In this document: positions 4,480 through 43,462 of the stretch, in pieces
Position numbering within the stretch: position 1 is the stretch's first letter
Layout of the letters: the number at the start of each line of letters is the position of its first letter
Origin: an uncultured Clostridia bacterium
GTDB taxonomy: Bacteria > Bacillota > Clostridia > TANB77 > CAG-508
Assembly: GCA_947626735.1 (NCBI GenBank)
Contig: CANQTK010000003.1
Coordinates: 8,952 to 72,951 of the forward strand
Direction of reading: 5' to 3'
DNA: 64,000 nt
The notes under the pieces: model-generated
Told to the model about the DNA's origin: nothing
The model's database searches: none
What the model saw: the letters and a program-made list of their open reading frames with translations, nothing else
Position numbers and translations under genes: made by a program

Positions 4480-4497
4480 CGGTTTTATTAAATTAAA

Positions 4498-4682
4498 TTC
4501 CCCACCTTAGCCGTATATCGAAAAGAAATTTTTATACCTGTTTTCACAGGTGGGTGTCTTGTTGAAGGCTCCTGGGTTTCTTACTATTCAAAATGTAAGC
4601 TTACACGCCACCTTCAAAGGCGGACTCCCTTATTTTATTTGTTGGTAATAAAATTTCAGTCTACACGTACCACGCAGGGAAT
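4498..4682 (-). ncRNA. ssrS: 6S RNA (probable)
   Basis: About 185-nt GC-richer island whose ends pair (TTCCCTGCGTGG...CTAAGGTGGGGAA); CACCCACCTG...CAGGT element recalled from Firmicutes 6S RNAs; sigmaA-like promoter upstream, terminator downstream; no covariance model run. Confidence 0.72.
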
Positions 4683-4894
4683 AAAAATATTTATTTGTGA
4701 TTTTATTGTAGCATAACAGAATCTACTTTTTCAATCTTACTTTTGCTTAAATTTTATACTTTAGGCTATGTTTTTTCTTGTTATCTTACTTTTTCTCATT
4801 TACTACTACTTATTTCTCTTTTTTTAGTATTTGCACTTTTTCTTATTTTATGCTAAAATAAAGAAAATTGTGCTATTTCCTTTTGCACAATTTT

Positions 4895-10578: not shown

Positions 10579-10903
10579 TCACTTCACCCCCATCAATTCT
10601 CTTGATTAATTCTTTCGCAAAATTCTCGTCTTTTATTACTATTACTGCTTTATTTACTTGCCCTATGCTTTTACTTAACTCTTCTATGGTTCCTATCATT
10701 CGTATTGGTATGTTATCCCTTTCACACAATTGTTCAAAATTCTTTTTTGTTCTTGAACTAGTATCTTCTGCTACTATTACTAACTTTGCCTTTCCTTTTT
10801 TTATGACTTCTTGCACACTTTCTGTTCCAAAATTTATTTTTCCTGCCCTGCGTGCTAGTCCGATTAAACCATAAATAGTATGATTTACCCCCAAATATTT
10901 CAC
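10571..10903 (-). CDS. ylxQ: L7Ae/L30e family RNA-binding protein (YlxQ-like)
   Basis: [27 protein letters not shown]; position between ylxR and infB. Confidence 0.88.
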
Positions 10904-26044: not shown

Positions 26045-26178
26045 TTTGTTTCCCTCCTTTTCCTCGGTAAGAGAACACGTTTTTTAAGTCACTTACTCTA
26101 AGGCAAAATCTGTTTTCTACTTATTCATAAGTGATGTTAATTTTTAGGCGTTCTCCTTATTTTTTTATTCATTATTTT

Positions 26179-27126: not shown

Positions 27127-27254
27127 TTTTACCTCCTATTTTTAGAAGTTAGAGTTTAGAATTTATCTTTTAATTTTACTCTTTTATACTCTACTTCACC
27201 TTTTCTATTTTACTTTATAGGTATCTAAATTTCTAACTGCGTAACTTCTATTTA

Positions 27255-27881: not shown

Positions 27882-27908
27882 TTTATTATTTTCCTCCTTT
27901 TTTTATTG

Positions 27909-28004
27909 TAGGGGACACATTTTTTTCTTTCTGTCATTACCACTAGGGACAAGATATGTCCCACACTTATGAATGGTTTATGTCAGATTTTAAAATGCTC
28001 TCCT
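27909..28004 (-). repeat. REP-like family 1, copy A (rpsK-rpsD)
   Basis: GGGGACACAT...GATATGTCCC stem with conserved loop GTCA(C/T)T..CACT.GGG. Confidence 0.8.
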
Positions 28005-28013
28005 CTTTCTATT

Positions 28014-28412
28014 TTAAACTCTTCTTCTTTTTGGTGGTCTACAACCGTTGTGTGGAATTGGAGTAACATCTTTGATGCTACTAATTTCTAAACCAGCTGC
28101 TTGTAATGAACGGATTGCTGCTTCACGTCCTGAACCAGGTCCTTTTACATATACTTCTACTGATTTTAAACCATGTTCCATAGCTGCTTTGGCAGCTGTT
28201 TCTGCAGCTTCTCCTGCTGCAAATGGTGTGCTTTTTCTAGAACCTTTGAATCCAAGTTCTCCAGCACTTGCCCAAGAAAGCGCATTTCCTTGAACGTCTG
28301 TAATAGTAACGATTGTATTATTGAAACTAGAGTGAATATGTGCCATGCCTTTTTCGATGTTTTTTCTATCTCTTCTTCTAGTTGTAGTTCTTTTTGTTAC
28401 TGGCTTTGCCAT
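28014..28412 (-). CDS. rpsK: 30S ribosomal protein S11
   Basis: [28 protein letters not shown]. Confidence 0.99.
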
Positions 28413-28436
28413 TTAACTTTCCTCCTTAACTATTTA

Positions 28437-28802
28437 TTATTTTTTGCTTTTACTTACTAATTTTCTTGGTCCTTTTCTTGTACGAGCATTTGTTTTTGTT
28501 CTTTGTCCTCTTACAGGAAGACCTCTTCTATGTCTTAACCCTCTATAACAACCAATTTCAGTAAGTCTTTTAATGTTTAATGCAACTTCTCTTCTTAAAT
28601 CACCTTCTACGGTAATTCCTTCCATTGCTTTTCTAATTGCTTGTTCTTGGTCTGCTGTTAAGTCTTTTACTCTTGTATCTGGGTTGATTCCAGCTTCTTT
28701 TAATACTTTTTGAGAAGTGGATAGTCCAATACCATAAATATAAGTAAGTCCTATTTCAATTCTCTTTTCTCTAGGTAAATCTACTCCTGCTATACGAGCC
28801 AT
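28437..28802 (-). CDS. rpsM: 30S ribosomal protein S13
   Basis: [28 protein letters not shown]. Confidence 0.99.
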
Positions 28803-29007
28803 ATTTTTTTAGCACCTCCGAATTTTATTTTTAGATTTGTTTGTATTGTTTGTTTATGAAAAGTGGAAAGGTGAAATGCACCAGAGATAAAGGATCTGGT
28901 CTTTCTATTTTTCATAGACATGTATATAAACACAAATTTGATTGATTGTTTCTTTTTGAAACACAGCCGCTCCAAACTTGTGTTAATATCGTTATTTTGG
29001 TATGTAA

Positions 29008-29121
29008 TTAACCTTGTCTTTGTTTGTGTTTTGGGTTTTCACAAATAACTCTAATAACACCTTTTCTTTTAATAATTTTGCATTTTTCGCAAATTTTCTT
29101 TACTGATGGTCTTACTTTCAT
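29008..29121 (-). CDS. rpmJ: 50S ribosomal protein L36 (absent from the ORF track)
   Basis: Manual translation [37 protein letters not shown]. Confidence 0.98.
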
Positions 29122-29270
29122 TTTTAAACACACCCCCTGTAATTTTTGATCTTATTTTTATGTACTACATTATGATGTGTGAGGTCAGATGTATAAGATA
29201 ACAGGCTAAATGAAATTTACACATCTCACGTCGCACCTCACAATAAAACCGTAGTATATAATTTTTACTT

Positions 29271-29489
29271 TTATTTTGCTCTCCATGTGATACGACCTCT
29301 GGTTAAGTCATAAGGAGAAAGCTCTACTTTTACTTTGTCTCCTGGTAAAATTTTGATATAATTCATTCTTAATTTTCCAGAAATATGAGCTAATATTTGA
29401 TGTCCATTTTCCAATTCTACTTTAAAGTTGGTATTTGGTAATGTTTCTACTACCGTACCCTCTACTTCAATTACATCTTCCTTGGCCAT
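29271..29489 (-). CDS. infA: Translation initiation factor IF-1
   Basis: [11 protein letters not shown]...[13 protein letters not shown]. Confidence 0.99.
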
Positions 29490-29578
29490 GTTTTCCTCCA
29501 TTTTTCTATGGTTTTACACGTTTTTGAGGTACAATTCTGCAATTGTACCCACAATAACTATTATAGTATATAACAACT

Positions 29579-30349
29579 TTATATTTTTGTCAAGATTTCT
29601 GGCTCATTTTCTGTAATTAAAATTGTATTTTCATAATGAGCCGCTCTTTTTTCATCTTCGGTGACAATGGTCCATCCATCTTCTAATTCTAAAATAGTAT
29701 CACGTCCTGCCATTACCATAGGTTCTATGGCAAGTGTCATGCCTGGTTCTAAGCGAATGCCTCTTCCTGCTTTTCCATAGTTTGGTATGCCTGGATCTTC
29801 ATGCATTTGTCTTCCTATCCCATGGCCTTGAAATTCTTTTACTACATTGAAGCCATTTTTTTCTACAAATTCTCCAATCGCATGAGAAACATCGCCAATA
29901 CGATTGTCTTTTTTAGCATATTTTATTCCTTCAAAAAAAGCTTGTTTTGTTACTTCTATTAACTTTTGTGATTCCTTATCGATATTTCCCACTGCATAGG
30001 TTCTCGCACAGTCTCCATTAAAACCATCTTTATAAGCAACTAAATCAATACTGATAATATCTCCTTCTTTTAAAATAACTCTTTTAGAAGGAATTCCGTG
30101 AATCACTTCATCATTGACAGAAGCACAAATGGAGCCTGGAAAATCTGGCACTCCCTTTACCCCACTTGGATAACCTTTTTCCGCAGGAATAGCACCATAC
30201 TTTCGCATGGTATTTTCTGCAATTTTATCTAATTCCCAAGTAGACACTCCTGGCTTAATTGCTTCTTCTACTGCTTTTTGCACTAAAGCTGCTATTTTAC
30301 ATGCTTCTCTCATTTTTTCTATTTCTTGTTTTGATTTAATTGTTACCAT
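29579..30349 (-). CDS. map: Methionine aminopeptidase type I
   Basis: SVNDEVIHGIP, GHGIG, EPM, AHYENT; start MVTIKS. Confidence 0.98.
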   Translation of the reverse strand: MVTIKSKQEIEKMREACKIAALVQKAVEEAIKPGVSTWELDKIAENTMRKYGAIPAEKGYPSGVKGVPDFPGSICASVNDEVIHGIPSKRVILKEGDIISIDLVAYKDGFNGDCARTYAVGNIDKESQKLIEVTKQAFFEGIKYAKKDNRIGDVSHAIGEFVEKNGFNVVKEFQGHGIGRQMHEDPGIPNYGKAGRGIRLEPGMTLAIEPMVMAGRDTILELEDGWTIVTEDEKRAAHYENTILITENEPEILTKI

Positions 30350-30367
30350 TTTCTCTTCCTTTCCTGT

Positions 30368-30462
30368 AAAATGTCGCATTAGGGACGTTTTACAATGAGA
30401 CATTTTAAATATAATTAATAAAAAATGTCTCTTTAGGAAACGTCCCCAAAGAGACATTTTTT
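30368..30462. repeat. Hairpin repeat family 3, inverted doublet (copies 3 and 4)
   Basis: AAAATGTCGCATT-agggacgttttac-AATGAGACATTTT then AAAATGTCTCTTT-aggaaacgtcccc-AAAGAGACATTTT; contains the adk stop. Confidence 0.75.
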
Positions 30463-31104
30463 TATTTCTTTTGCTACGTCTTCTGAGGTTTTACCTGAGT
30501 GTAAATTTAGTTTTACGGCATATAATAAGTCTTGTGCTTTATAATAATCGACTAATTTGGCAGATGTTTCGTGATAAGTTTTTAGTCTTTGTTTTACTGT
30601 TTCTATGTTGTCATCTTCTCTTTGTACTAATTGACTGTGGCAAATATCACAGATTCCTTCTTGTTTTGGCTTTTTAAATTCTAAATTATAGACTTCTCTA
30701 CAATTTATGTTTGAGCATACTCTTCTTTTTACAATTCTATCTATAATATCTTCATCCGATAATTCTAATTCTACTGCTATGTCTATTTTCTTTCCTTGTT
30801 TCTTTAAAAAAGTATCAAATGCTTCTGCTTGCACGATGGTTCTTGGGAAGCCATCTAAAATGACACCATTTTTACAATCTGGTTCTTGCAATCTTTGTTC
30901 TACCAATTTTATTGCTAAATCATCTGGTACTAAATTTCCTTTTGATACATAAGAATCAATTTGCTTTCCTATTTCTCCTGCTTTTTTGATATAACTTCGA
31001 AATAATTCTCCACTGGATAAATGTGTAATTCCTAAAGATTCCGATAACATTTTTCCTACGGTTCCTTTTCCTGAACCTGGTTTTCCTAGCATAACAATAT
31101 ACAT
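30433..31104 (-). CDS. adk: Adenylate kinase
   Basis: GKPGSGKGT, LDGFPRT, Zn-lid cysteines, QREDD. Confidence 0.98.
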   Translation of the reverse strand: MYIVMLGKPGSGKGTVGKMLSESLGITHLSSGELFRSYIKKAGEIGKQIDSYVSKGNLVPDDLAIKLVEQRLQEPDCKNGVILDGFPRTIVQAEAFDTFLKKQGKKIDIAVELELSDEDIIDRIVKRRVCSNINCREVYNLEFKKPKQEGICDICHSQLVQREDDNIETVKQRLKTYHETSAKLVDYYKAQDLLYAVKLNLHSGKTSEDVAKEIKKCLFGDVS

Positions 31105-31299
31105 TTGTTGCTTACTCCCTTCTCTTTTGCTTTTACTTTACTATTATACCATTTTTTGCCACATAAGTATACTATTTTTTTATAAAAAAATAGATGCTTT
31201 ACTTTGCATCCATTTTTTATTATATATAATTTTTTCTCTGCTTAATATAATTAAGCCTTCAAATAATACCTGTTTTTTTCCTCCGTCCCCAAAAACAGT

Positions 31300-32616
31300 T
31301 TATTCTAAGAATCCTTTGTAATGTCTCATGACAAGTTGAGATTCTAGTTGTTGTACTGTTTCTAAGGCAACACCTACTACGATTAAGATAGAGGTTCCAC
31401 CAAAGGCAATATTTAGGTTGGTAAATCTTAGTAACATTGGAATGATTGCAATAACGGCTAAGAATAAACCTCCAAATAGTGTAATTTTTGAGATAATAGA
31501 ACTTAGGTAGTCTGTTGTTGGCTTTCCTGCTCTAATTCCTGGTATAAATCCACCATTTTTCTTAATATTGTTTGATACTTCTGCTGGATTGAAGGTAGCA
31601 TAAGTATAAAAATAGGTAAAACCTAAAATTAGTAGTAAGTATACGATTGCATTTGCAATGGAGTATCCTACTGGAACATTTGATGTTGATGTTGCAATAG
31701 AGAATTTATAAATGACACTCCAGAACCCTGTTTGCGATGCGATATTTGGTATAAACATTTGAATAATCATAGCTGGAAATGTCATAAAGGAGGAAGCAAA
31801 AATAACCGGCATTACACCTGCCATAGCAAGTTTTAATGGAATGTTTGTATTTTGTGCTCCTACCATTTTTCTTCCTACTACTCTTTTTGAATATTGTACG
31901 GGAACTCTACGTTCTGCTTGTTGTACAAAGACAACTCCTGCAACTAAGATAATGGCTCCTATGATAATGCCTAAGCCAATTAGTAGTCCTGTTGTAGAGA
32001 ATATTCCTGTTCCAAAGATTAAATTCCAAATGGTGGTTACTCCTCCTGGAAGACCTGCAATAATACCTACAAAGATAATCATAGAAATTCCATTTCCAAT
32101 TCCTTTATTGGTAATTTGGTCTCCAAGCCACATTAGAAGTGCTGTTCCTGCCATTAAAGAAATTACCACGGTTGCTCCTGTTAAGAAGCTTGCATCCATG
32201 AAAATTCCAGAAGAACGATAAGATAAATAGATACCTAATCCTTCAATTAAGGCAAGGACAATGGTTAATAGTTTTGTATAACGGTTGATTTTCTCTCTAC
32301 CTTCTTCTCCACCTTCTTTGGTTAGTCTTTCTAAGGCAGGAATTACCATAGCTAATAATTGAATTACAATGGAAGCAGTAATGTATGGGCTGATAGACAT
32401 AGCAAAAATAGATAAACGAGAAAAAGCTCCTCCTGAGATTAAATCTATTAAAGATGCCATTCCTTGCCCGCTAAATGCTTCTGCAAGTCGGAAATTATTG
32501 ACTCCTGGAACGGTAATATAACAACCTAATCGAAATACGATAATTAAAATTAGGGTATATAATAATCTTTTTCTAACATCTGGCGTTTTTAACGCATTTT
32601 TGATTGTTTGAAACAA
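31300..32616 (-). CDS. secY: Preprotein translocase SecY
   Basis: ISPYITASI, GIGNGISMIIF, GGFIPGIRAG, GGTSILIVVGV. Confidence 0.99.
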   Translation of the reverse strand: MFQTIKNALKTPDVRKRLLYTLILIIVFRLGCYITVPGVNNFRLAEAFSGQGMASLIDLISGGAFSRLSIFAMSISPYITASIVIQLLAMVIPALERLTKEGGEEGREKINRYTKLLTIVLALIEGLGIYLSYRSSGIFMDASFLTGATVVISLMAGTALLMWLGDQITNKGIGNGISMIIFVGIIAGLPGGVTTIWNLIFGTGIFSTTGLLIGLGIIIGAIILVAGVVFVQQAERRVPVQYSKRVVGRKMVGAQNTNIPLKLAMAGVMPVIFASSFMTFPAMIIQMFIPNIASQTGFWSVIYKFSIATSTSNVPVGYSIANAIVYLLLILGFTYFYTYATFNPAEVSNNIKKNGGFIPGIRAGKPTTDYLSSIISKITLFGGLFLAVIAIIPMLLRFTNLNIAFGGTSILIVVGVALETVQQLESQLVMRHYKGFLE

Positions 32617-33051
32617 TTAAATCACCTCTGTCTTTCCACCTAAAGCTTCTATTTTTTCTTTCGCTCCTTTAGTGAATCGAACAGCTTTAACAGTTAATTT
32701 CTTTTCTAATGTACCAGTTGCGATTACAACAATACCATCGTTTGCTTTAGATATAATTCCATCTGCAATTAAGCTCTCAGCAGTTACTTCGTCTTTGCTT
32801 GATTTGTTAAGCATTGTTAAAGTTACTTCTGTGTAATTTTTTGCATGAATATTTGTAAATCCTCTTTTTGGTAATCTTCTATATAATGGTGTTTGACCTC
32901 CTTCGAATCCACGTCTAACTCCTCCACCAGATCTTGCTTTTTGTCCTTTATGTCCTCTTCCTGATGTTTTTCCTAGACCAGAACCGATTCCACGTCCAAC
33001 TCTTTTCTTTATTTCTGTTTTTTGTGCTGGTTTTAATTCGTCTAATTTCAT
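32617..33051 (-). CDS. rplO: 50S ribosomal protein L15
   Basis: [30 protein letters not shown]. Confidence 0.99.
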
Positions 33052-33096
33052 TTTAGGATTACACCTCCTCTTTTTATTTGTTGGGATTTTCCCTTA

Positions 33097-33588
33097 TTAT
33101 AAAATTTCTTCTACTTTCTTTCCTCTTTTTGCTGCAACTTGCTCAATGGTTTGCATTTTCTTTAAACCTTCCATGGTAGCATATACTACGTTTCTTGGGT
33201 TATTGGTTCCTAATACTTTTGTACGGATGTCTTTGTATCCTGCAAGTTCAATAACTGGTCTTACGCTTCCTCCTGCTATGATTCCAGTACCTTCTGCTGC
33301 TGGTTTTAGCATAACGTTTGCGCTACCAAATTTTCCAATATATTCATGTGGTATGGTAGTTCCTACAATTGGAACTTCAATTAAGTTCTTCTTTGCTTCT
33401 TGAATTGCTTTCTTGATAGCATCTGGAACTTCTGCTGCTTTTCCGTTTCCTACACCTACGTGTCCTGCTTCGTCTCCTACAACAACAACTGCACTAAAAC
33501 GGAATGTTCTACCACCTTTTACAACTTTTGCAACTCGATTAATTGCAACGACCTTTTCTTTTAATTCTGGTGTATTTTCTTCGTGCAC
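33097..33588 (-). CDS. rpsE: 30S ribosomal protein S5
   Basis: [12 protein letters not shown]; GTG start at 33588 after an SD. Confidence 0.98.
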
Positions 33589-33615
33589 AGTCTTTTCCCT
33601 CCTTTTTCTTAAGGT

Positions 33616-33708
33616 AAGGGGACACATCTTTACTTTTACGTCACTTCCATAGGGACAAGATATGTCCCCACTATGAATAAGTAATGTCAGTAATTTAATG
33701 TTCTCCTT
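33616..33708 (-). repeat. REP-like family 1, copy B (rplR-rpsE)
   Basis: GGGGACACATCTT...AAGATATGTCCCC. Confidence 0.85.
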
Positions 33709-33731
33709 ATTCTTCATTTTTTCTTTTTTAT

Positions 33732-34091
33732 TTAAAATTCTAATCCTGCTTCTCTTGCAGCTTCTGCTAATTCTTTTACAACGCCATGATAAATATATCC
33801 ACCTCTATCATAAACAACAGATTTAATATTTTTTTCTATGGCTCTTTTTGCGATTAAAGTACCTACTTCTTTTGCTGCTTCTTTATTAGCATGTTTTGTT
33901 TTTACTTCTTTATCTAATGTAGAAGCTTGGCAAAGAGTTGTTCCTTTCACATCATCAATGACTTGAACAAAAAGATTTTTATTACTTCTATAAACACATA
34001 GTCTTGGACGTTCTGCAGTTCCACTAATTTTTGTACGAACCCTAATATGTCTTCTTGTTCTTTCTACTTTACGATTTACTTTCGTAATCAT
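33732..34091 (-). CDS. rplR: 50S ribosomal protein L18
   Basis: [28 protein letters not shown]. Confidence 0.99.
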
Positions 34092-34153
34092 TGTTTTCTC
34101 CTTTCTACTAATGTAACAGCATTAGTAATTTAGATTGTTTTATAAGTTATTAT

Positions 34154-34278
34154 GAAACAAAGCAAAAGTGGTATATTGCTAGGAAAGCAAATAAAAATTT
34201 TTGAGATAATACGAGTTTGTATATCGAAAAAATTTTTATGCAGCTTGACAACGCAAGATGCCGCTTTTCATTTGTTTC
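34154..34278. repeat. Long hairpin repeat family 2, copy 1 (rplF-rplR)
   Basis: TTGCTAGG...TTTTTGAG..TAC..GTA..CGAAAAAA...GACAACGCAAGA core enclosed by an outer inverted repeat. Confidence 0.8.
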
Positions 34279-34817
34279 TACTTCTTACCTGCTTTACCTT
34301 CTTTTCTTCTAATATGCTCATCTGCATATTTAATACCTTTACCATGATATACTTCTGGTGGTCTCTTTGTTCTTACTACTGCTGCTGTTTGACCAACTGC
34401 TTCTTTATCAATTCCTTTTACAATAACGGTATTTGGGTTTGGAACATCAAATGTAATACCTGCAGGTTCTTCCATCTCTACTGGATGAGAATAACCTAAA
34501 TTCATTACTAATTTTTTTCCTTGTTTTTGTGCTCTATATCCAACACCAACAATTTGTAATTCTTTTTGATATTCATTACGAACACCTTCTATCATGTTGG
34601 CAATTAAAGTTCTTGTTAATCCATGTAAACTTTTATTTTCTGCTTCATCGTCTGGTCTTGTAATATGAATTACATTTCCTTCAATGGCAACACTCATGTT
34701 TTTGTGGATTTCTCTTTCTAATGTTCCTTTAGGTCCTTTTACCGTTAAATGTGTTCCATCTAGTTTTACTTCTACTCCTTCTGGTACGGTAATAGGTTTA
34801 TTTCCTATTCTTGACAT
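34278..34817 (-). CDS. rplF: 50S ribosomal protein L6
   Basis: MSRIGNKPI, GVGYRA, PEVYHGKGI. Confidence 0.99.
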   Translation of the reverse strand: MSRIGNKPITVPEGVEVKLDGTHLTVKGPKGTLEREIHKNMSVAIEGNVIHITRPDDEAENKSLHGLTRTLIANMIEGVRNEYQKELQIVGVGYRAQKQGKKLVMNLGYSHPVEMEEPAGITFDVPNPNTVIVKGIDKEAVGQTAAVVRTKRPPEVYHGKGIKYADEHIRRKEGKAGKK

Positions 34818-34843
34818 GACTGGTTTTCCTCCTTTTCTTCTAA

Positions 34844-34943
34844 TGACAGGGGACACATCTTACCTCTTAGTCACTTTCACTTTGGGTTAAGGTATATCCC
34901 CTACCCTTGTGAATTAATGTTCAAATGTTTTACCAATTCCCCT
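34844..34943 (-). repeat. REP-like family 1, copy C (rpsH-rplF)
   Basis: TGACAGGGGACACATCTTACC...AAGGTATATCCCCTAC. Confidence 0.85.
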
Positions 34944-34955
34944 ATTGATTTTCTA

Positions 34956-35354
34956 CTACCACACATAGGCTAGTACTTCTCCACCTAAACCTTCATTTCT
35001 TGCTTCTTTATCCGTTTTAATTCCTTTTGAAGTAGAAATTAAGGCTATTCCTAGTCCATTTAATACTTGTGGTAATTCGTCCTTTGATGCATATACCCTT
35101 AATCCTGGTTTGCTAATTCTCTTTATTCCATCGATTACTTTAGCACCTTTTTCATCATATTTTAAGGTAATTCTAATCATTCCCTGTGCCTCATCTTTGA
35201 TTTCTTCAAATGCTTTGATATATCCTTCTTCAAATAGAATTTTAGCAATTGCTTTTTTCATATTAGAAGATGGAACATCAACAGTTTTATGTTTTGAACT
35301 ATTGGCATTTCTAATTCTTGTTAGCATATCTGCTATTGGGTCTGTTGTATTCAT
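34956..35354 (-). CDS. rpsH: 30S ribosomal protein S8
   Basis: [30 protein letters not shown]. Confidence 0.99.
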
Positions 35355-35395
35355 ATTCAATATTTCCCTCCTTTTTCCCTGTTTTATCATTTATT

Positions 35396-35581
35396 CTACC
35401 AACTTGCTTTTTTTACTCCAGGAATTTCACCTTTATGTGCTAATTCTCTAAAACATACACGGCAAATTCCATATTTTCTAATATAAGCATGTGGTCTTCC
35501 ACAAAGTTTGCATCGATTATATTCTCTTGTTTTGTATTTTTGTTCTCTTGCTTGCTTTACTTTTAAAGATTTCTTAGCCAT
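35396..35581 (-). CDS. rpsZ: 30S ribosomal protein S14, Zn-binding type
   Basis: [29 protein letters not shown]. Confidence 0.98.
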
Positions 35582-35606
35582 TAGCTATTTTCTCCTTTCA
35601 CTAGTT

Positions 35607-35704
35607 TGACAGGGGACAACTACTGCCTTTTGGTCACTCTCATTTGGGATAAGGTATTTTTCCTACCTTTATGAATGAATGTTCAAATGGTTTTTTATCC
35701 TCCT
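35607..35704 (-). repeat. REP-like family 1, copy D (rplE-rpsZ), degenerate stem
   Basis: TGACAGGGGAC...GGTCACTCTCATTTGGGATAAGGTA...TGAATGTTCAAA. Confidence 0.8.
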
Positions 35705-35715
35705 GCTATTTCATT

Positions 35716-36258
35716 TTAATTTTTAAATGGCATTCCTAATAATGTTAATAATTCTCTTGCTTCTTCGTCTGTCTTAGCGGTAGTAACAAATATAATATCC
35801 ATACCTCTAATTTTGTCTACTTTATCATATTCGATTTCAGGGAAGATTAATTGTTCTTTTACACCCATAGAGTAGTTTCCTCTACCATCAAAAGAATTTT
35901 TAGATACTCCTCTAAAATCTCTTACTCTTGGAAGTGCTACATTAAATAATTTATAAGCAAAATCATACATTTTTCCTTGTCTTAATGTAACTTTACATCC
36001 CATGTTAACGCCTTCTCTAATTTTGAAAGCAGCAATTGCTTTCTTTGCTTTTGTTATAATTGGTGTTTGACCAGTGATTATTTTAATATCATTGATAGCG
36101 TTTTCTAATGATTTTGGATTGTCTTTAATATCTCCTAATCCGACATTAATTACTATTTTTTCTAATTTTGGAACTTCCATTACTGATTTATAATTAAATT
36201 TTTTCATTAATGCTGGAATGACTTCTTTTTGATATTGTTCTTTTAATATTTCCATCAT
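35716..36258 (-). CDS. rplE: 50S ribosomal protein L5
   Basis: [29 protein letters not shown]. Confidence 0.99.
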
Positions 36259-36280
36259 TTATGTATTTCCTCCTTTCATT

Positions 36281-36378
36281 TGACAGGGGACACATCTTAC
36301 CTCTTGGTCACTTTCACTTGGGCTAAGGTATGTCCCCTCCCCTCGTGATTAAGTGTTCAAGTAGTTTTAATGTCCTTC
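36281..36378 (-). repeat. REP-like family 1, copy E (rplX-rplE)
   Basis: TGACAGGGGACACATCTTACC...AAGGTATGTCCCCTCC. Confidence 0.87.
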
Positions 36379-36687
36379 TTATTTTAGTTTGGTGTTGCAC
36401 TTTTTACAAACACGTACTTTTTCATCTTTTTCTATTTGATAACCAATTTTGGTAGCCTTTCCACATTTAGGGCAAACTACGTTTACTTTACTTGCGTGAA
36501 TAGCACATTCTACTGGTATAATACCGCCTTCTTCACCTTGTTTTCTTGGTTTTACATGTTTTTTTCTAACATTGATACCTTTTACTATAATCTTCTGCGT
36601 TTTTGGTATTACTTCTAGTACTTCTCCTGTTTTCCCTTTATCATTTCCAGATAAAACTTTGACATTATCGCCTTTTTTTATTTTCAT
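36379..36687 (-). CDS. rplX: 50S ribosomal protein L24
   Basis: KKGDNVKVLSGNDKGKTG. Confidence 0.99.
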   Translation of the reverse strand: MKIKKGDNVKVLSGNDKGKTGEVLEVIPKTQKIIVKGINVRKKHVKPRKQGEEGGIIPVECAIHASKVNVVCPKCGKATKIGYQIEKDEKVRVCKKCNTKLK

Positions 36688-36767
36688 TTTTCTTTTTCAC
36701 CTCTTTTTTAGAATTTTGACTTCTATGAAAGAATTTTTAATTTACAATTTGTATCTTTTCTTATCTT

Positions 36768-37136
36768 TTAAAGTACTTCTGGAGCTAAAGATAAAATTTT
36801 CATATAATCTTTATCTCTTAATTCTCTAGCAACAGGGCCAAAAATACGAGTTCCTCTTGGGTTTTTATCTTCTCTTATAATGACTGCTGCATTTTCGTCA
36901 AATCTTACATAGGATCCATCTGCTCTTCGAATTGGTTTCTTTGTTCTTACTACTACTGCTTTTACAACGTCACCTTTTTTAACAACTCCGCCAGGTGTTG
37001 CTGTTTTAACAGAAGCAACAATGACATCACCAACACCAGCATATTTACGATAAGATCCACCTAAACATCTGATGCACATAATCTCTTTTGCACCAGTGTT
37101 ATCCGCTACTTTTAATATGGATTGTTGTTGTACCAT
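36768..37136 (-). CDS. rplN: 50S ribosomal protein L14
   Basis: [28 protein letters not shown]. Confidence 0.99.
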
Positions 37137-37180
37137 TTTTCGCTTTTCCTCCTTTTACTAATGTTCTCCTATTTTTAATT

Positions 37181-37444
37181 TTATTTAATAATAGCCTTTT
37201 CTACTATTTTTACCACTCTAAATCTTTTATCTTTAGATAAAGGTCTTGTTTCCATGACTTGTACCTTATCGCCAATTCCACATTCATTGTTTTCATCATG
37301 TGCTTTTAAGGTATAAGTTTTCTTTTGAATTTTTCCGTAAGTTTTATGTTTTTCGTTCGTCTCTACGGCTACTACTACAGTTTTATCCATCTTATTTGAT
37401 TTTACAATGCCTGTAAATGTTTTACGAAGATTTCTTTCTTCCAT
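37181..37444 (-). CDS. rpsQ: 30S ribosomal protein S17
   Basis: [19 protein letters not shown]. Confidence 0.99.
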
Positions 37445-37470
37445 TCTTAAATCTCCTTTCTTTCCTTATT

Positions 37471-37569
37471 TGTCAGGGGACGCATCTTTCTTTTTGGTCA
37501 CTTCCACTTGGGCTAAGGTATGTCCCCTCCCCTTGTGATTAAGTGTTCCAATTGTTTTAATGTTCTCCT
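37471..37569 (-). repeat. REP-like family 1, copy F (rpmC-rpsQ)
   Basis: Nearly identical to copy E. Confidence 0.87.
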
Positions 37570-37770
37570 TTATTTATTGTCTTCTAATTTTCTTTCTGTT
37601 AATACAGTATTAATTTTTGCAATGTCTTTTTTCACTTCTTTAATTTTCATAGGATTATCTAATCCATTTGTTGCTAAACTAAATCTTAGTTTGAATAATT
37701 CCGATTTCAATTCTCCTAATTCTTTTTCTAGATCTGGTGAAGACATTTTTCTTATTTCATTAATCTTCAT
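37570..37770 (-). CDS. rpmC: 50S ribosomal protein L29
   Basis: [27 protein letters not shown]. Confidence 0.97.
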
Positions 37771-38200
37771 CACTCTCACCACCTATTTCAGTTTCTTTTT
37801 TAACAAATTTACACTTAACAGATAGTTTATTTCCAGCAAGTCTTAGTGCTTCTCTTGCTGCTTCTTCAGGTACTCCTGCTATTTCAAACATAACTCTTCC
37901 TGGTTTTACGGCTGCTACCCAATATTCTACTGCTCCTTTTCCTTTACCCATACGAGTTTCTGCTGGTTTCTTTGTTATTGGCTTATCTGGGAAGATTTTA
38001 ATCCAAACCTTTCCTCCTCTTTTAATATAACGAGTCATAGCAACACGGGCAGATTCAATTTGGTTTGTTGTAATTAAACCTGCTTCTAATGCTTGAAGTC
38101 CAAATTCACCATCTGATACATAATTTCCTCTTGTTGCTTTTCCTCTATTTCTACCTTTTTGTTGTTTTCTATATTTGGTTCTTTTTGGCATTAATGGCAT
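37760..38200 (-). CDS. rplP: 50S ribosomal protein L16
   Basis: [20 protein letters not shown]. Confidence 0.99.
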
Positions 38201-38859
38201 TATTTGTCTCCTCCTTCCACTTTCTTTTTCGTTGGAAGAACTTCTCCTTTATAAATCCAAACTTTGACACCGATTTTTCCATATGTGGTATCTGCTTCTG
38301 CAAATCCATAGTCAATATCAGCTCTTAAAGTTTGAAGTGGTATGGTTCCTTCTTTATAGAACTCAGTTCTTGCCATGTCTGCTCCACCTAATCTTCCAGA
38401 TACTGCAGTTTTAATTCCTAAAGCACCTGCTTTCATTGTTTTTTGCATACATTGTTTCATCGCTCTACGGAAGGAAATTCTTCTTTCTAGTTGTCCTGCG
38501 ATGTTTTCTGCAACTAATTGTGCATTTACATCTACATCTTTTACTTCAACGATATTTAAATTTACTTCTTTTCCTATCATTTTTTGTAATTCATTTTTTA
38601 ATGTTTCTGCTAAGTTTCCACCTTTACCAATGACTAATCCTGGTTTTGCTGTGTAAACATTCACTTTTACAAATTTAGCAGTTCTTTCAATTTCAATTCT
38701 TGAAATTCCGCTAATATATAATTTTTTCTTTACATACTCACGAATTTTGTGATCTTCTACTAGGTAGTTTGCAAATTCTTTTTTGTTTGCATACCATTTT
38801 GAGTCCCAGTCTTTAATTACACCAACTCTTAATCCATGAGGATCCATTTTTTGTCCCAT
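38200..38859 (-). CDS. rpsC: 30S ribosomal protein S3
   Basis: [27 protein letters not shown]. Confidence 0.99.
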
Positions 38860-38879
38860 TGTATATAAGCTCCTTTCTA

Positions 38880-39248
38880 TTAATCTCTTTCTCTTAATAC
38901 GATTGTAATATGGCTTGTTCTTTTACGAATTCTAACAGCAGAACCTTTTGCAGCTGGTCTAATTCTTTTTAAAGTTGGACCTTGGTTTGCATATACTTCT
39001 GCAACGTATAGTTTTTCATGTGCCATATGATGATTGTTTTCAGCGTTTGCAATAGCTGATTTTAATAATTTTTCTACTATTTCAGAGGCAGCCTTTGGTG
39101 TAAATTTTACGATAGCTAATGCTTCGTCTACACTTTTTCCTCTAATTAAATCGATGACGATTTTTACTTTTCTACTTGAAATTCTAGCATATTTAAGAGT
39201 TGCTGCGGCTTCTGGAATAATAACTTCTTGCATTTCTTCTTTTTCCAC
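38880..39248 (-). CDS. rplV: 50S ribosomal protein L22
   Basis: [27 protein letters not shown]; GTG start after AAGGAGG. Confidence 0.98.
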
Positions 39249-39266
39249 GTTATTTTCCTCCTTAAT

Positions 39267-39367
39267 TGTCAGGGGACACACCTTTTTTATTTTGTCACTT
39301 CCACTCGGGTTTAAGGAATGTCCCCTCCCCTTGTGAATTAGTGTTCAAATATTTTTGGTGTTCTCCT
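39267..39367 (-). repeat. REP-like family 1, copy G (rpsS-rplV)
   Basis: TGTCAGGGGACACACCTT...AAGGAATGTCCCCTCC. Confidence 0.85.
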
Positions 39368-39379
39368 TATTTTTATTTT

Positions 39380-39661
39380 TTATTGTTTTGTTGTGGTTGT
39401 TTTCTCTCCTGCATGACCTTTAAAAGTTCTTGTTGGAGCGAATTCTCCTAATTTATGACCTATCATTTCTTCTGTAATATAAACTGGCACATGTTTTCTA
39501 CCATCATGAACAGCGATTGTGTGTCCTACCATTTGAGGGTATATAGTAGAAGCTCTTGACCATGTTTTTAATACTTCTTTTGCTCCTGTTTCGTTCATTG
39601 CTTCAATTCTTTTTAATAGTTCTGGAGCAACAAATGGAGTCTTTTTACTTGATCTTGACAT
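39380..39661 (-). CDS. rpsS: 30S ribosomal protein S19
   Basis: [18 protein letters not shown]. Confidence 0.99.
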
Positions 39662-39677
39662 ATCTTATTTTCCCTCC

Positions 39678-40505
39678 TTATTTTCTTCTCTTAACAATCA
39701 TTTTGTTCGATTGTTTATTTTTCTTTCTCGTCTTGTATCCTAGAGCTGGTTTACCCCAAGGTGTCATTGGTCCTGCGTGTCCTACTGGAGCTCTACCTTC
39801 ACCACCACCATGAGGGTGATCTACTGGGTTCATAACAGAACCTCTAACGGTTGGACGAATTCCTAAATGTCTTGTTTTTCCAGCTTTACCAAGTTTTACG
39901 TTTTCATGGTCTGTATTTCCTACCGTTCCGATAGTTGCTCTACATCTTGTCATAACTAATCTCATTTCTCCAGATGGAAGTCTTATGTGAGCATAATTTC
40001 CTTCTTTCGCCATTAATTGTGCTTCTTGACCAGCTGCTCTTACCATTTTTCCACCTTGACCTGGATTTAACTCGATGTTATGAATCATAGTACCTACTGG
40101 AATTGCTTCGATTGGCATTGCATTTCCTGGTTTTATATCTGCTTTTTCTCCAGATACTACTTTGTCACCATCCGTTAATCCTACTGGTGCTAAGATGTAA
40201 CTTAAAGTTCCATCTTCATATTTAATTAAAGCGATGTTAGCACTTCTGTTTGGGTCATATTCGATACCTACTACAGTTGCTTCCATATCATCTTTGTTTC
40301 TTTTAAAATCAATTACTCTATATTTTTGTCTATTTCCTCCACCTTGGTGACGAACGGTTACTCTACCATAAGAGTTTCTTCCTGCTTTTTCTTTCTTTAC
40401 TGTTAATAAAGATTTTTCAGGAGTTTTTTTGGTAATTTCGTCAAATGTAGAAACTGTTGTGTTTCTTAATGATGGGGTTGTTGGTCTAAAGTGTTTCATT
40501 CCCAT
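39678..40505 (-). CDS. rplB: 50S ribosomal protein L2
   Basis: [21 protein letters not shown]. Confidence 0.99.
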
Positions 40506-40515
40506 TATTCTTTTC

Positions 40516-40635
40516 GAAACTTTGAAAAACTTCGTCTTGCGTTGTCAGATTTCAAAATTATTTTTTCGACATACAGATGTATAGTCTCAAAAATATTTTC
40601 TCATCTTCCTAGCAATACTCGTTTTTGAAAGTTTC
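40516..40635. repeat. Long hairpin repeat family 2, copy 2 (opposite orientation), directly upstream of rplB
   Basis: Homologous to copy 1; outer 15-bp stem with one mismatch. Confidence 0.8.
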
Positions 40636-40730
40636 TCTCCTTTCTTACTTTTATTTTTATTGTAGTTTTTTTCCCGGTCCACTTCCGGCTATTCTTTCTT
40701 TTCCGAGTGATTTCTCGATAAAATTTTTAT

Positions 40731-40901
40731 TTATCTTTCTTCTCTTGTAAAAATTTTTTCTCCATTTTCAAATCTTTCTAGTGCTTTGTCAAATATTTCT
40801 TCTTGATTTTCTGGTGGTAAACAATATTTTGCTATAAATCCATCTTCTGGAATTCTATTTCTTTCTAAAAATTCTTTTCTTTTTTCACTTGTTTCACTCA
40901 T
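40731..40901 (-). CDS. Small hypothetical protein, 56 aa, inside the S10 operon
   Basis: Manual translation MSETSEKRKEFLERNRIPEDGFIAKYCLPPENQEEIFDKALERFENGEKIFTREER; SD AGGTGA. Confidence 0.6.
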   Translation of the reverse strand: MSETSEKRKEFLERNRIPEDGFIAKYCLPPENQEEIFDKALERFENGEKIFTREER

Positions 40902-40928
40902 ATTTTTCACCTACTTCTATTTTTAGAT

Positions 40929-41050
40929 AAACGAATCAAAATTAGTAGATTGCTAGGCAAATTTAATAATTAACACCTGAGGCGTACGTGTGTACGTTGA
41001 AGGTTTAATTATTAAATTTAACGACGCAAGATGCTGATTTTCATTCGTTT
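40929..41050. repeat. Long hairpin repeat family 2, copy 3
   Basis: TTGCTAGGC-AAATTTAATAATTAA..TGAGGCGTAC-GTGT-GTACGTTGAAG..TTAATTATTAAATTT-AACGACGCAAGA. Confidence 0.75.
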
Positions 41051-41053
41051 AGG

Positions 41054-41401
41054 TTATGCTCCCATGAATTCATCAATTGAATCTTTATATTTCTTTGTCA
41101 TTTTTGTAGCTTTTCCGCCTTTAGCAAGATATGTTTTTTCAGCTGGATTGGTATCGATGGTTACAATTGCTTTTTTCCAATCTGATGTTTTTCCTTCATA
41201 TCTTCCCATTCTTTTCATTTTTCCTTTTACCGTAACCGTATTTACTTTTAATACTTTTACTTCAAATAATTTTTCTACTGCATTTGCAATATCAACTTTT
41301 GTTGCTTTTTTGTTTACTTCAAAAGTGTATTTTCCTTCTTGCATTCCATCATTACTTTTTTCTGTGATAACAGGTGCAATGATAATATCTTCTGGTTTCA
41401 T
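41054..41401 (-). CDS. rplW: 50S ribosomal protein L23 with a C-terminal extension
   Basis: [21 protein letters not shown]. Confidence 0.98.
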
Positions 41402-42024
41402 TATGCATACACCTCCTCTAATTTCTTAACTGTATCTAGAGTCATTACTAAGTTTTTGTATTTTAATAAGTCATATACGTTGATAGTATTTACTAATGTT
41501 GTTTTTACTCCTTCAATGTTTCTTGCAGATTTTTGAACATTTTCGTTCTTTTCTGGTAATAACATTAATGTTTTACCTTCTACTTTTAAATTGTTTAAAA
41601 TCTTAACCATTTCTTTGGTTTTGATTTCTTTTATCTCTAATTTGTCAACTACTACTAATTCATTTTCTAATACTTTTGAGCTTAGCATTGATTTAATCGC
41701 AAGTCTCTTTTCTTTTTTATTTACAGTGTAGCTGTATGAACGTGGTTTTGGTCCTAAAGCGATACCACCTTTAATCCATTGTGGTGCTCTAATAGAACCT
41801 TGTCTTGCTCTACCTGTTCCTTTTTGTCTCCATGGTTTTCTTCCACCACCGCTCACTTCTGATCTTGTCTTAGTACTTTGTGTACCTTGTCTTTGATTTG
41901 CTAAGAAGTTTACAAGTACGCTATGTACGACAGCTTCATTTGGTTCAATTCCAAAAATAGCTTCGTTTAACTCTACTTCTTTTACTTTCTTTCCTTCTAT
42001 ACTATATACGTCTATTTTAGGCAT
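41401..42024 (-). CDS. rplD: 50S ribosomal protein L4
   Basis: [15 protein letters not shown]. Confidence 0.99.
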
Positions 42025-42041
42025 TTACTTTTCCTCCTTCC

Positions 42042-42671
42042 TTATGCTTTTACACTTGTTTTTATTTTTAAGATAGCACCTTTTACTCCTGGTACACTAC
42101 CTTTTACTAAAATGACATTTTTATCCATATCAACACGTACTACATCTAAGTTTTGGATGGTAATGGTTTGAACTCCCATATGACCTGGTAATTTCTTTCC
42201 TTTAAATACTCTACCTGGTGTTGAAGTTGGTCCCATTGAACCTGGTCTTCTATGATACATAGAACCATGTCCCATTGGTCCTCTACTTTGACCATGACGT
42301 TTGATAACACCTTGGAAACCTTTTCCTTTTGAAGTTCCTTGAACATCAATTTTATCTCCAGCTACAAAAGTATCGGCTTTAATTTCGTCTCCGACTTTAT
42401 AGCTTTCAATAGAATCTACACGAAATTCTCTTAAATGTTTCTTTGGTGTAACACTTCCTTTTGCATAATGTCCTTTTACTGGTTTGTTTACTTTGTTTTC
42501 TTTGACTTCTCCGAAACCTAATTGAACTGCGTCATATCCGTCTGTTTCTACTGTTTTAACTTGTGCTACAACGCATGGTCCTGCTTCGATAACCGTAACT
42601 GGAATCACTTTTCCTGTTTCATCAAAGATTTGTGTCATTCCTATTTTCTTTCCTATGATTGCTTTTTTCAT
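42042..42671 (-). CDS. rplC: 50S ribosomal protein L3
   Basis: [23 protein letters not shown]. Confidence 0.99.
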
Positions 42672-42794
42672 TTTAAAATTCCTCCTATACGATTTTAACC
42701 GCATAAGTTATCTGTAATTTTCTTCTATTTAACAGCTAACTTAACTATTGGCTCGCACTTTTTGTGCTAGCTTGGTTTTGTTGTTTTTGATTTT

Positions 42795-43121
42795 CTACAA
42801 TTTGATTTCAATATCAACACCAGCTGGTAAATCTAATTTCATTAGACTGTCAACTGTTTTTTGTGTTGGATAAAGAATATCAATTAATCTTTTATGTGTT
42901 CTCATTTCAAATTGTTCTCTAGAATCTTTGTCTTTGTGTGGAGAACGTAAGATTGTAACGATTTCTTTTTGTGTTGGTAATGGAATAGGTCCTGAAACTT
43001 TTGAACCTGTTCTTTTAGCTGTTTCTACTATTTGTTCAGCAGACTTTTCTAAAAGTTCAGCATCATAAGCTTTTAGTCTTATTCTCATTTTCTCACTTCC
43101 TACTTTGTTTGATGTTGCCAT
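42795..43121 (-). CDS. rpsJ: 30S ribosomal protein S10
   Basis: [30 protein letters not shown]. Confidence 0.99.
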
Positions 43122-43143
43122 TTGTTTTTCCTCCTTTACTTAA

Positions 43144-43244
43144 TGACAGGGGATGCATCTTTCCTTAACGTCATTTCCACTAGGGATAAGATACATCCCC
43201 TACTTGTGAATAAATGATGTCAGTTTTTATTGCAATCGCCTTCC
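43144..43244 (-). repeat. REP-like family 1, copy H (rpsJ leader)
   Basis: TGACAGGGGATGCATCTT...AAGATACATCCCCTAC. Confidence 0.83.
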
Positions 43245-43329: not shown

Positions 43330-43462
43330 TTGGGATAAGTGCTTTTCTTTTTTATAAAACTTACCGCCTGGTCTAAGCCATGACATACTCCATAGAAGTT
43401 CCCTCCACCCTACGCATTGTTAGGATGTAGCCACATTCTACTTCATCGCTTTGTTTACATGC
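43330..43462 (-). promoter_or_regulatory. Structured rpsJ (S10) leader
   Basis: GC-richer segment starting GCGATGAAG.AGA just after the promoter, resembling recalled Firmicutes rpsJ leaders. Confidence 0.5.

Follow-up and report, generated by a model that had tools for sequence, protein, structure and literature searches.

Within a 64,000-nt stretch of DNA from an uncultured Clostridia bacterium (contig CANQTK010000003.1 of assembly GCA_947626735.1, positions 8,952 to 72,951; hereafter the window), the spacers between the ribosomal-protein genes are repeatedly occupied by a structured hairpin element. The copies of this element are best read as non-autonomous hairpin repeats, akin to repetitive extragenic palindromes (REP) and miniature inverted-repeat transposable elements (MITE), that are co-transcribed with the operon. 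They display a strict sense orientation, a fixed distance to the start codon and a strong preference for the translation apparatus, and they behave as insertions with turnover, which undergo tandem duplication, nested insertion and decay by internal deletion. The S10-spc-alpha operon that hosts most of them is among the most tightly packed and most conserved stretches of bacterial genomes, and its spacers usually contain little beyond a ribosome binding site (RBS). In the window, which has a GC content of 31%, this ribosomal-protein cluster is located on the minus strand at ~25.5–43.2 kb, and NCBIfam confirmed the identity of S10, L22, L29, S17, L5, S14 type Z, L6, S5, S4 and L17. DNA runs trace the organism to the rabbit gut, and public RNA runs yielded contigs of relatives only, 90–95% alike to the organism.

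Repeat finding and direct reading of the spacers revealed eight copies in the window, all on the minus strand and hence in the sense of the operon. A covariance model built from these eight copies (model R1) scored them at 85–111 bits (E-values of 1e-16 to 1e-22), in agreement with the junctions and the common orientation given in an initial annotation of the sequence (Table 1). Moreover, a 30-nt degenerate pattern matched seven copies in the window and none in 100 window shuffles. The initial annotation had recognised only one distant relative elsewhere, but the model revealed two, a degenerate ninth copy between rpoA and rplQ (39 bits) and a variant with another loop (29 bits; referred to as type 2). 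This brings the count to nine copies in the 17.7-kb ribosomal-protein cluster and one variant in the other ~46 kb, and a half-site scan of the window revealed nothing beyond these nine copies and the variant at 56.5 kb. The ninth copy has kept its box resembling a Shine-Dalgarno (SD) sequence, its 5′ arm and the GTGAC loop motif, with both stem strands decayed; the same junction in a relative (L018) harbours an intact variant. Two further spacers probably contain deletion remnants, judging from their sequences and those of the relatives. At rpsQ-rplN, an intact copy is found in L011 and L001 (alpha subtype, see below) and a plain spacer of 25–26 nt in L012 and L026, and at rpsE-rplO intact copies are found in L001, L023, L018 and L020.

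The anatomy of the unit was derived from an alignment of 60 copies from the window and its relatives, read 5′ to 3′ on the sense strand. Initially sized at ~95 nt, the unit in fact extends over ~105–110 nt between the upstream stop codon and the SD of the next gene, since it starts directly after that stop codon with an SD-like box (AGGAGAAYA, referred to as box 0) that is present in nearly all copies. This box is followed by a 5′ arm of one of three subtypes (alpha, TTTGAACAC; beta, GGTCAWC; gamma, CTGACATC), all ending in TTCAYAAG, and subsequently by a G-rich strand (strand 1, GGGGACATWCCTT), a loop containing CCCAAGTGGAAGTGAC, a C-rich strand (strand 3, AAGRTGTGTCCCC), and TGACA with about 12 A-rich bases that lead up to the SD of the gene itself. 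Strands 1 and 3 make up a 13-bp hairpin (GGGGACAT.CCTT / AAG.TGTGTCCCC, referred to as hairpin A), and the internal-loop sequences AAGGGGA and CCCAAGTGG are conserved. The earlier impression of a conserved loop on varying stems was reversed by the alignment: the stem is the most conserved part of the unit and changes at only a few positions. Specifically, the 13 pairs of hairpin A are formed in 91% of cells, with compensatory change in five of them, and the covariation of 0.162 exceeded that of shuffles (0.117; 0 of 500 higher) and of all slid controls, although the small number of subtypes among the copies makes such covariation and rank tests overstate independence. A blind all-against-all covariation of columns was swamped by G-U pairs with invariant U. 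Likewise, the GTAG/GTGG/GGAG-like tetranucleotide that had been proposed to precede the hairpin dissolved on inspection, as the four bases 5′ of the stem vary among the window copies (GGGA, GGTA, AGTA, AGTG, GTGT); among 115 more distant relatives, the generic hairpins described below, only the last of the four is conserved (G, 86%).

The 5′ and 3′ arms are complementary to each other (–20.2 versus –9.3 kcal/mol in shuffled sequences, z –4.2, in 43 of 44 copies), so that the whole unit can also fold as a long rod in which box 0 pairs with strand 3, and RNAfold chose the hairpin about as often as the rod. In 54 of 59 copies, the fold of the sense strand is more stable than that of the antisense strand, by 5.4 kcal/mol, and it contains more G-U pairs. 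A pseudoknot between the 5′ arm and the loop may form: the short helices concerned can pair in 88% of cells, but their covariation does not rise above that of shuffles (49 of 500 reach the observed score) and their registers differ between subtypes.

Table 1. Copies, variant and probable remnants of the hairpin element in the window.
Feature	Position	Strand	Subtype or state	Location	Score (bits)	Further remarks
Copy 1	43133..43233	–	gamma	between weak S10-leader-like stretch and rpsJ SD	103.2	downstream gene S10
Copy 1, hairpin core	43150-43199	–				hairpin pattern match
Copy 2	39256..39360	–	alpha	rpsS-rplV spacer	98.7	downstream gene L22
Copy 2, hairpin core	39273-39324	–				pattern match
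Copy 3	37460..37562	–	alpha	rpmC-rpsQ spacer	111.2	
Copy 3, hairpin core	37477-37526	–				
Copy 4	36270..36372	–	alpha	rplX-rplE spacer	107.6	
Copy 4, hairpin core	36287-36336	–				
Copy 5	35596..35698	–	alpha	rplE-rpsZ spacer	87.5	5′ stem strand decayed (GGAAAAATACCTT)
Copy 6	34833..34936	–	alpha	rpsH-rplF spacer	107.6	
Copy 6, hairpin core	34850-34900	–				
Copy 7	33602..33700	–	gamma	rplR-rpsE spacer	84.8	
Copy 7, hairpin core	33619-33668	–				
Copy 8	27895..27996	–	gamma-like	rpsK-rpsD spacer	85.8	downstream gene S4
Ninth copy	26055..26150	–	degenerate	rpoA-rplQ spacer	39	E 2.6e-6
Type-2 variant	56539..56642	–	same stem, different 5′ flank	precedes 692-aa gene	29.2	loop AAAGGAATAC
Probable remnant	37137..37180	–		rpsQ-rplN spacer		SD-like box AGGAGAACATTAG directly abuts native SD
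Probable remnant	33052..33096	–		rpsE-rplO spacer		TAAGGGAAAATCCC, then tail AACAAATAAAAAG; 45-nt spacer

Several simple roles in gene expression were examined and set aside. A short leader peptide behind box 0 was rejected, as neither the window copies nor the alignment provide a start codon at initiation distance, and so was a promoter within the element, as no –10 partner is correctly spaced from the TTGACA- or TTGAAC-like boxes of the 5′ arm. The predicted probability that the RBS is unpaired was 0.60 in the natural context, 0.615 with the element deleted and 0.60 with the element shuffled. Sequestration of the SD or insulation of the RBS was accordingly rejected as a thermodynamic effect, and this unchanged accessibility suggests that the insert is harmless to initiation. 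An expression platform based on SD occlusion or termination was not found either, the SD lying ~17 nt beyond the structure and the window copies having no U-tract behind the stem. The elements do extend back the first-start ORFs of rpsE (33097-33717), rplF (34278-34856) and rplV (38880-39281), whose profile matches begin only at residues 51, 15 and 27, respectively, as the elements contribute 14–50 spurious N-terminal residues. Such inflation of first-ATG ORFs, in these and other genes, can mislead gene callers, and the repeats can mislead assemblers.

When one genome of each prokaryote species was scanned for an exact pattern, 27 loci were obtained. Uncultured Clostridia contributed 25 of these, in 18 assemblies; the remaining two, in an archaeon and a Lentisphaeria, gave no model hit and were discarded as chance matches. 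The model recovered 62 hits in these 25 loci, in a sample in which diverged copies and copies in other contexts are under-sampled because the relatives had been found via exact patterns. All 25 genuine loci adjoin genes for translation, transcription or glycolysis, which upholds the clustering noted initially for the ribosomal operon and makes the enrichment before such genes real. Wherever a downstream gene could be called, the copy is oriented in sense and ends shortly before the SD of that gene, which can be rpsJ, rplV, rpsQ, rplN, rplE, rpsZ, rpsH, rplF, rplR, rpsE, rplO, rpsD, rplQ, rpsG, fusA, tuf, rplK, rplL, rpoB, rplT or gap. The distance from the end of the stem is 17 nt to the SD and 30 nt (median; interquartile range 27–33 nt) to the start codon.

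Comparison of the relatives junction by junction showed that occupancy differs between species, and the presence/absence variation across strains that had been suggested as a check on the element was indeed found, with empty alleles at rpmC-rpsQ, rplX-rplE, rplE-rpsZ, rpsH-rplF and rplR-rpsE in relatives and in co-occurring strains. Since repeats cause spurious joins in Logan contigs (e.g., 36328 to 39321), the empty alleles were taken only from joins with unique bridging bases. Specifically, the rpmC-rpsQ spacer of 125 nt in the window is reduced to 17 and 20 nt in two contigs from public runs (X1 and X20, respectively), and the rplX-rplE spacer of 120 nt to 18–26 nt in L011, L017, L012, L026 and L025. 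Within the species, the X13 contig (99.5% identity to the window) has only 6 nt instead of 99 between 36279 and 36379, leaving 27 nt between rplX and rplE, and reads as an empty allele of this junction. The rplE-rpsZ spacer measures 134 nt in the window and 21–43 nt in relatives, and X20 has retained only an SD-like box in a spacer of 35 nt. In the empty alleles of rpmC-rpsQ and rplX-rplE, the SD and the spacer downstream of it match those of the filled allele and box 0 is absent, indicating that the whole unit, including this box, constitutes the insert. The native SD is then the 3′ one of the two SD-like sequences, and box 0 shares with it only an AGGAG/AAGGA core.

Filled junctions also change their occupant. 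At rpmC-rpsQ, L027, L011 and L017 carry the gamma subtype in place of the alpha subtype of the window, and both at rpsJ and at rpsQ the subtype differs between the window and L027 despite proteins that are 92–94% identical. At rpsS-rplV, where the window has an alpha copy, L027 has a type-2 hairpin and L017 an unrelated one, whereas L012 and L025 are empty, and rpsH-rplF is occupied by a heptamer-armed hairpin of another family in L011, L017, L001 and L023 and is empty (36 nt) in L020 and L026. L002, L012, L025 and L026 contain tandem copies, in which the C-rich strand of the upstream member is truncated, and in L001 (5561-5740) a type-2 hairpin is nested inside a unit. The likeness to REP that the initial annotation had drawn could therefore be retained as far as REP/MITE-type insertion is concerned, given these empty sites, subtype swaps and tandem, nested or decayed copies, and its further analogy with the RAYT-mobilised repeats is not supported, given that no conserved tetranucleotide was found and no transposase came to light in the window or recurrently in the at least 120 metagenome loci described below.

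Other hairpin repeats were observed at junctions of the same operon. A second, unrelated family (AAACRAATGAAAAKCRGCATCTTGCGT...) fills the rplF-rplR spacer (34092-34277) and is present at 40506-41053 as the inverted flanks of a 59-aa ORF in the 548-nt gap between rplW and rplB. The X20 and X24 contigs join 34143 to 34285 without it, suggesting that this family is polymorphic between strains as well. A third family, consisting of a hairpin with TAGAAGTTA / TAACTTCTA-like heptamer arms, occupies the rpsD-rpoA spacer (27127-27254), and in relatives (L027, L001, L011, L010) long (AGAAGTY)n arms are found at rpsJ-rplC, rplB-rpsS, rplV-rpsC, rplE-rpsZ, rpsZ-rpsH and rpsH-rplF. Finally, the normally tight adk-map junction (30366-30462) contains two adjacent 39-nt palindromic units (AAAATGTC...GAGACATTTT) enclosing GGGACG / CGTCCCC, which may represent another small hairpin element.

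By sequence comparison, the hairpin core belongs to a large REP-like superfamily in Clostridia metagenomes. A pattern restricted to the stem (GGGAYRTWYCTT, 20–34 nt, AAGRTGYRTCCC) matched six of the window copies and at least 120 metagenome contigs, mostly from fermentation, digester and gut samples and with a GC content of 27–50%. Viral contigs gave no match to it, and an origin from phages was rejected on this basis. Among the at least 120 contigs, the prevailing form (referred to as generic) has the same stem in extended form and other loop classes (CAAAGACTATCCC, AAAGGAATACC). Among the matches listed, generic copies are often arranged in tandem, nested or half-site arrays; L069, L033/L034/L145, L076 and L078 display several G-rich followed by several C-rich half-sites, forming nested ladders. 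With respect to their neighbouring genes, generic copies are oriented mostly opposite to the type found in the window (referred to as leader type), with 37 opposite/opposite versus 12 same/same cases. In 31 of 65 cases, no more than 20 nt separate the conserved flank CCCC-WTWCCTYTAA from the stop codon of the opposite-strand gene, so the generic hairpin may often supply or abut the stop codons of such genes. About 16 low-GC contigs nevertheless contain copies of the leader type, before rplN, tuf, rplQ, rpmJ, rpsC, rplX and rpsD, and also before the orthologue of the 692-aa gene that follows the type-2 variant in the window.

In the window itself, this 692-aa gene matches no Pfam or NCBIfam family, and relatives have leader-type hairpins before its orthologue. 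It encodes a membrane protein and is part of an operon (50846-58594, minus strand) of proteins that match no Pfam or NCBIfam family and give only weak hints of DUF3801 and of a CdiA-type RNase fold; the low-GC contigs L092, L116, L119 and L127 contain this gene set with leader-type hairpins in front.

The conservation of both stem strands in primary sequence, across hosts of 27–50% GC and across loop classes, suggests recognition by a conserved protein. The hairpin or duplex might then act in the DNA, binding a nucleoid protein, gyrase or a recombinase, as REP/BIME sequences do with IHF and gyrase, and help heavily transcribed DNA to cope with supercoiling or with encounters between replication and transcription. 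The association with the most heavily transcribed operons fits such a role. We nevertheless deem it very improbable: the strand asymmetry with its G-U (G-T) pairs favours the single-stranded form of one strand, the position is fixed to the start codon and not to promoters or operon ends, and no candidate protein is known.

A mobilising enzyme did not emerge. The RAYT or other HUH transposase flanked by the motif that the initial annotation had led one to expect was found neither among the 41 ORFs of the window, which hold no other transposase either, nor recurrently in the at least 120 metagenome loci. The largest recurrent ORF cluster near the metagenome hairpins, among the matches listed, consists of ABC ATPases, and the inverted hairpin pair of L076 encloses housekeeping genes only. 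Nor did these loci reveal a full-length insertion sequence with matching ends that could supply a transposase. A literature search on the stem sequence and on REP/RAYT in Clostridia returned no description of the family, which thus appears to be undescribed.

Comparison with the REP, BIME and REPIN repeats of Proteobacteria and their RAYT transposase (TnpA-REP, a Y1 HUH enzyme) brings out both likeness and difference. The elements share with them short GC-rich imperfect palindromes in an AT-rich background, multiple extragenic copies that often lie in operons and are co-transcribed, tandem or composite arrays and an orientation bias, and the whole leader-type unit forms a long imperfect palindrome like a REPIN doublet. 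They differ in having no conserved GTAG-type 5′ tetranucleotide, in a hairpin core of 50–60 nt versus 20–35 nt for REP, and in their arrangement, the ten copies in 64 kb being single, in one orientation and never paired as inverted repeats. Moreover, they lie 5′ of start codons whereas REPs lie in 3′ regions, neither the window ORFs nor, recurrently, the at least 120 metagenome loci revealed a RAYT, and their hosts are Clostridia. The Correia/NEMIS elements of Neisseria and the ERIC/IRU elements of Enterobacteria resemble the unit in their size (~100–150 bp), long inverted arms, gene-adjacent position, co-transcription as mRNA hairpins and presence/absence polymorphism between strains. The unit thereby has the MITE traits of pairing terminal inverted repeats and of presence or absence at orthologous sites. 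Correia elements, in contrast, duplicate a TA target, insert in both orientations and can carry promoters, while the present units show no clear duplication, lie in sense only and have no promoter-like spacing. De Gregorio and co-workers reportedly found that RNase III or RNase E cuts Correia/NEMIS and ERIC hairpins and thereby alters mRNA stability; for the present element, such cleavage would be by analogy only.

Each unit of ~105 nt has thus been inserted as a block between the upstream stop codon and the native SD of the next cistron; its copying may rely on template switching or on an enzyme that acts on single-stranded DNA and is encoded elsewhere. The unit is co-transcribed with the operon and can fold either as the 13-bp hairpin or as the long rod. 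Both folds are self-contained and leave ~17 nt to the SD and ~30 nt to the start codon, and the unit persists almost only before very highly expressed genes of the translation apparatus. Here, the stable stem may well serve as intercistronic punctuation, as a barrier to RNases or as a processing site, for instance with RNase III acting on the stem, or with the 5′ stem and SD-like box countering 5′-to-3′ decay. Each cistron would in this way obtain a stable segment of its own, with ribosome binding untouched. We hold the chances of such punctuation by the stem and the SD-like box to be evenly balanced, by analogy with NEMIS/Correia, ERIC, REP and the RNase III sites of phage T7.

The last of these, the early-gene hairpins of T7, and the rplJL-rpoBC site are likewise related stem-loops that punctuate a polycistronic transcript upstream of an RBS. 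They are fixed in their genomes, unlike the insertion-polymorphic elements, and their stems measure ~20 bp with a characteristic internal loop; leader-type stems have 13–15 bp, and those of many generic relatives ~20 bp. The STAB-SD and 5′ stem-loop stabilisers of Bacillus (cryIIIA, aprE, hbs; PMC5737220) also combine an SD-like sequence that has no start codon with a stable stem, located in the 5′ untranslated region of genes that a low-GC Gram-positive bacterium expresses very strongly. They are, in contrast, single-gene features at true transcript 5′ ends, whereas box 0 is internal to a polycistronic RNA and able to pair with strand 3, and stabilisation by the present element is hypothetical.

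A number of observations argue against punctuation or against a mobile origin. No mobilising enzyme and no recurrent transposase-like ORF cluster came to light in the window and the at least 120 metagenome loci, respectively, and comparison of empty with filled alleles revealed no clear target-site duplication. Positions turn over fast and leave remnants, no single copy is indispensable, and infB, rplU, rbfA and lysS, translation genes in the window, have no element. At low divergence, the element and synonymous sites change at about the same rate (e.g., fusA, 0.93 versus 0.96). In relatives, these junctions also harbour hairpin families unrelated to the element, which a general hot spot of insertion would explain as well as selection does. 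The GC skew is –0.15 throughout the window, nearly all genes are on one strand, and the sense strand of the operon is the leading strand, so that within the window orientation towards transcription is not separable from orientation towards replication and is not assignable to the former. The RNA role, finally, is only inferred.

Much of this would suit a selfish or neutral passenger that has no function for the cell and accumulates in the stop-to-SD spacers of highly transcribed operons, both because its copying favours them, through DNA exposed as single strands or through their AAGGAG-rich micro-homology, and because its self-contained fold is harmless there. In addition to the fast turnover and the deletion remnants, the tandem and nested copies, the presence/absence at strain level, the unchanged predicted RBS accessibility and the near-neutral divergence between close relatives point in this direction, as do the at least three other hairpin families that crowd the same junctions in relatives and window and the many unrelated contexts of the generic hairpins. 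On the other hand, a passenger would hardly be expected to maintain a strict sense orientation, a fixed position and a narrow gene set over 18 assemblies and further metagenome contigs, in an orientation opposite to that of most generic members. The rplR-rpsE and rpmC-rpsQ junctions, moreover, are filled by one family or another in almost all species. Conservation of the stem and of several loop positions also persists while four-fold sites near saturation: the orthologous gamma copy 7 in L011/L017 retains 83–84% identity versus 65–66% at the four-fold sites of rpsE, and orthologous copies of the same subtype compare with four-fold sites as 0.83 versus 0.66 (rpsE), 0.89 versus 0.44 (rpsQ) and 0.98 versus 0.90 (rpoB). 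A tolerated passenger with insertion bias strikes us as a possible if less favoured explanation, nearly as likely as punctuation.

Structured RNA directly upstream of ribosomal-protein cistrons is also known from the ribosomal-protein leaders (S10-Clostridia, RF03136; the L4, S8 and S4 autoregulatory sites). These are gene-specific, fixed in position and mimic rRNA sites, whereas the present element is one sequence before more than 20 different genes, with positions that turn over and no match in Rfam. A search of Rfam 15 returned no hit on any copy, whether at the gathering threshold or with E relaxed to 5, beyond miRNA noise. The S10-Clostridia leader itself matched at 27.5 bits, below its threshold of 35.1, at 43361-43454 on the minus strand, just upstream of copy 1, and copy 1 may have been inserted between this older leader and the SD of rpsJ. 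A leader acting across a whole regulon could nonetheless be envisaged, in which strand 3 pairs either with strand 1 (hairpin) or with box 0 and the 5′ arm (rod), and a trans-acting factor (a protein, a small molecule, or the 30S subunit on box 0) sets the balance between both folds and thereby coordinates the ribosomal proteins, EF-Tu, EF-G, RpoB and GAPDH. Most copies do possess two exclusive and about equally stable folds, box 0 is conserved with no start codon behind it, the internal-loop sequences are conserved, the gene set resembles a growth-rate regulon, and tandem copies are also known for T-boxes and riboswitches. This switch is nevertheless unlikely in our view, since the native SD lies outside both folds with a predicted accessibility that is independent of the element, the helices between 5′ arm and loop show no covariation above shuffles, positions differ between species and decayed copies are tolerated, no Rfam family matches, and the hairpin is common to plainly non-regulatory intergenic repeats.

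Leader-type units might, in an equally doubtful extension of this idea, be domesticated REP-like repeats that tag the mRNAs for the translation apparatus as members of a single post-transcriptional regulon, which would be a bacterial counterpart of the eukaryotic 5′TOP motif by analogy. The SD-like box and the inner G-rich strand would compete for the one C-rich strand, a mechanism that we rate as improbable, and a shared trans-acting factor or the 30S subunit would tie the output of each cistron to ribosome availability or growth rate.

Some further features of the window are recorded here. There is no gene for L30 (rpmD) between rpsE and rplO, and L23 (115 aa) and L17 (174 aa) are longer than usual. 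A 6S RNA (4495-4683, 103 bits) and a gene for an L7Ae-family protein in the nusA-infB operon (10571-10903) are ordinary for Firmicutes.

Taken together, the tight operon spacers of this organism, and of a clade of uncultured small-genome gut Clostridia, have been colonised by a structured repeat. If the units are used by the cell, as the punctuation reading would have it, they would amount to a modular copy-and-paste means of segmenting or stabilising the polycistronic mRNAs of highly expressed genes, and would be directly applicable as a synthetic-biology part for Gram-positive anaerobes. If they are only tolerated, their self-contained fold would show how mobile DNA can live inside essential operons, and they would provide a handle on an undescribed superfamily of hairpin repeats that is widespread in anaerobic Clostridia.

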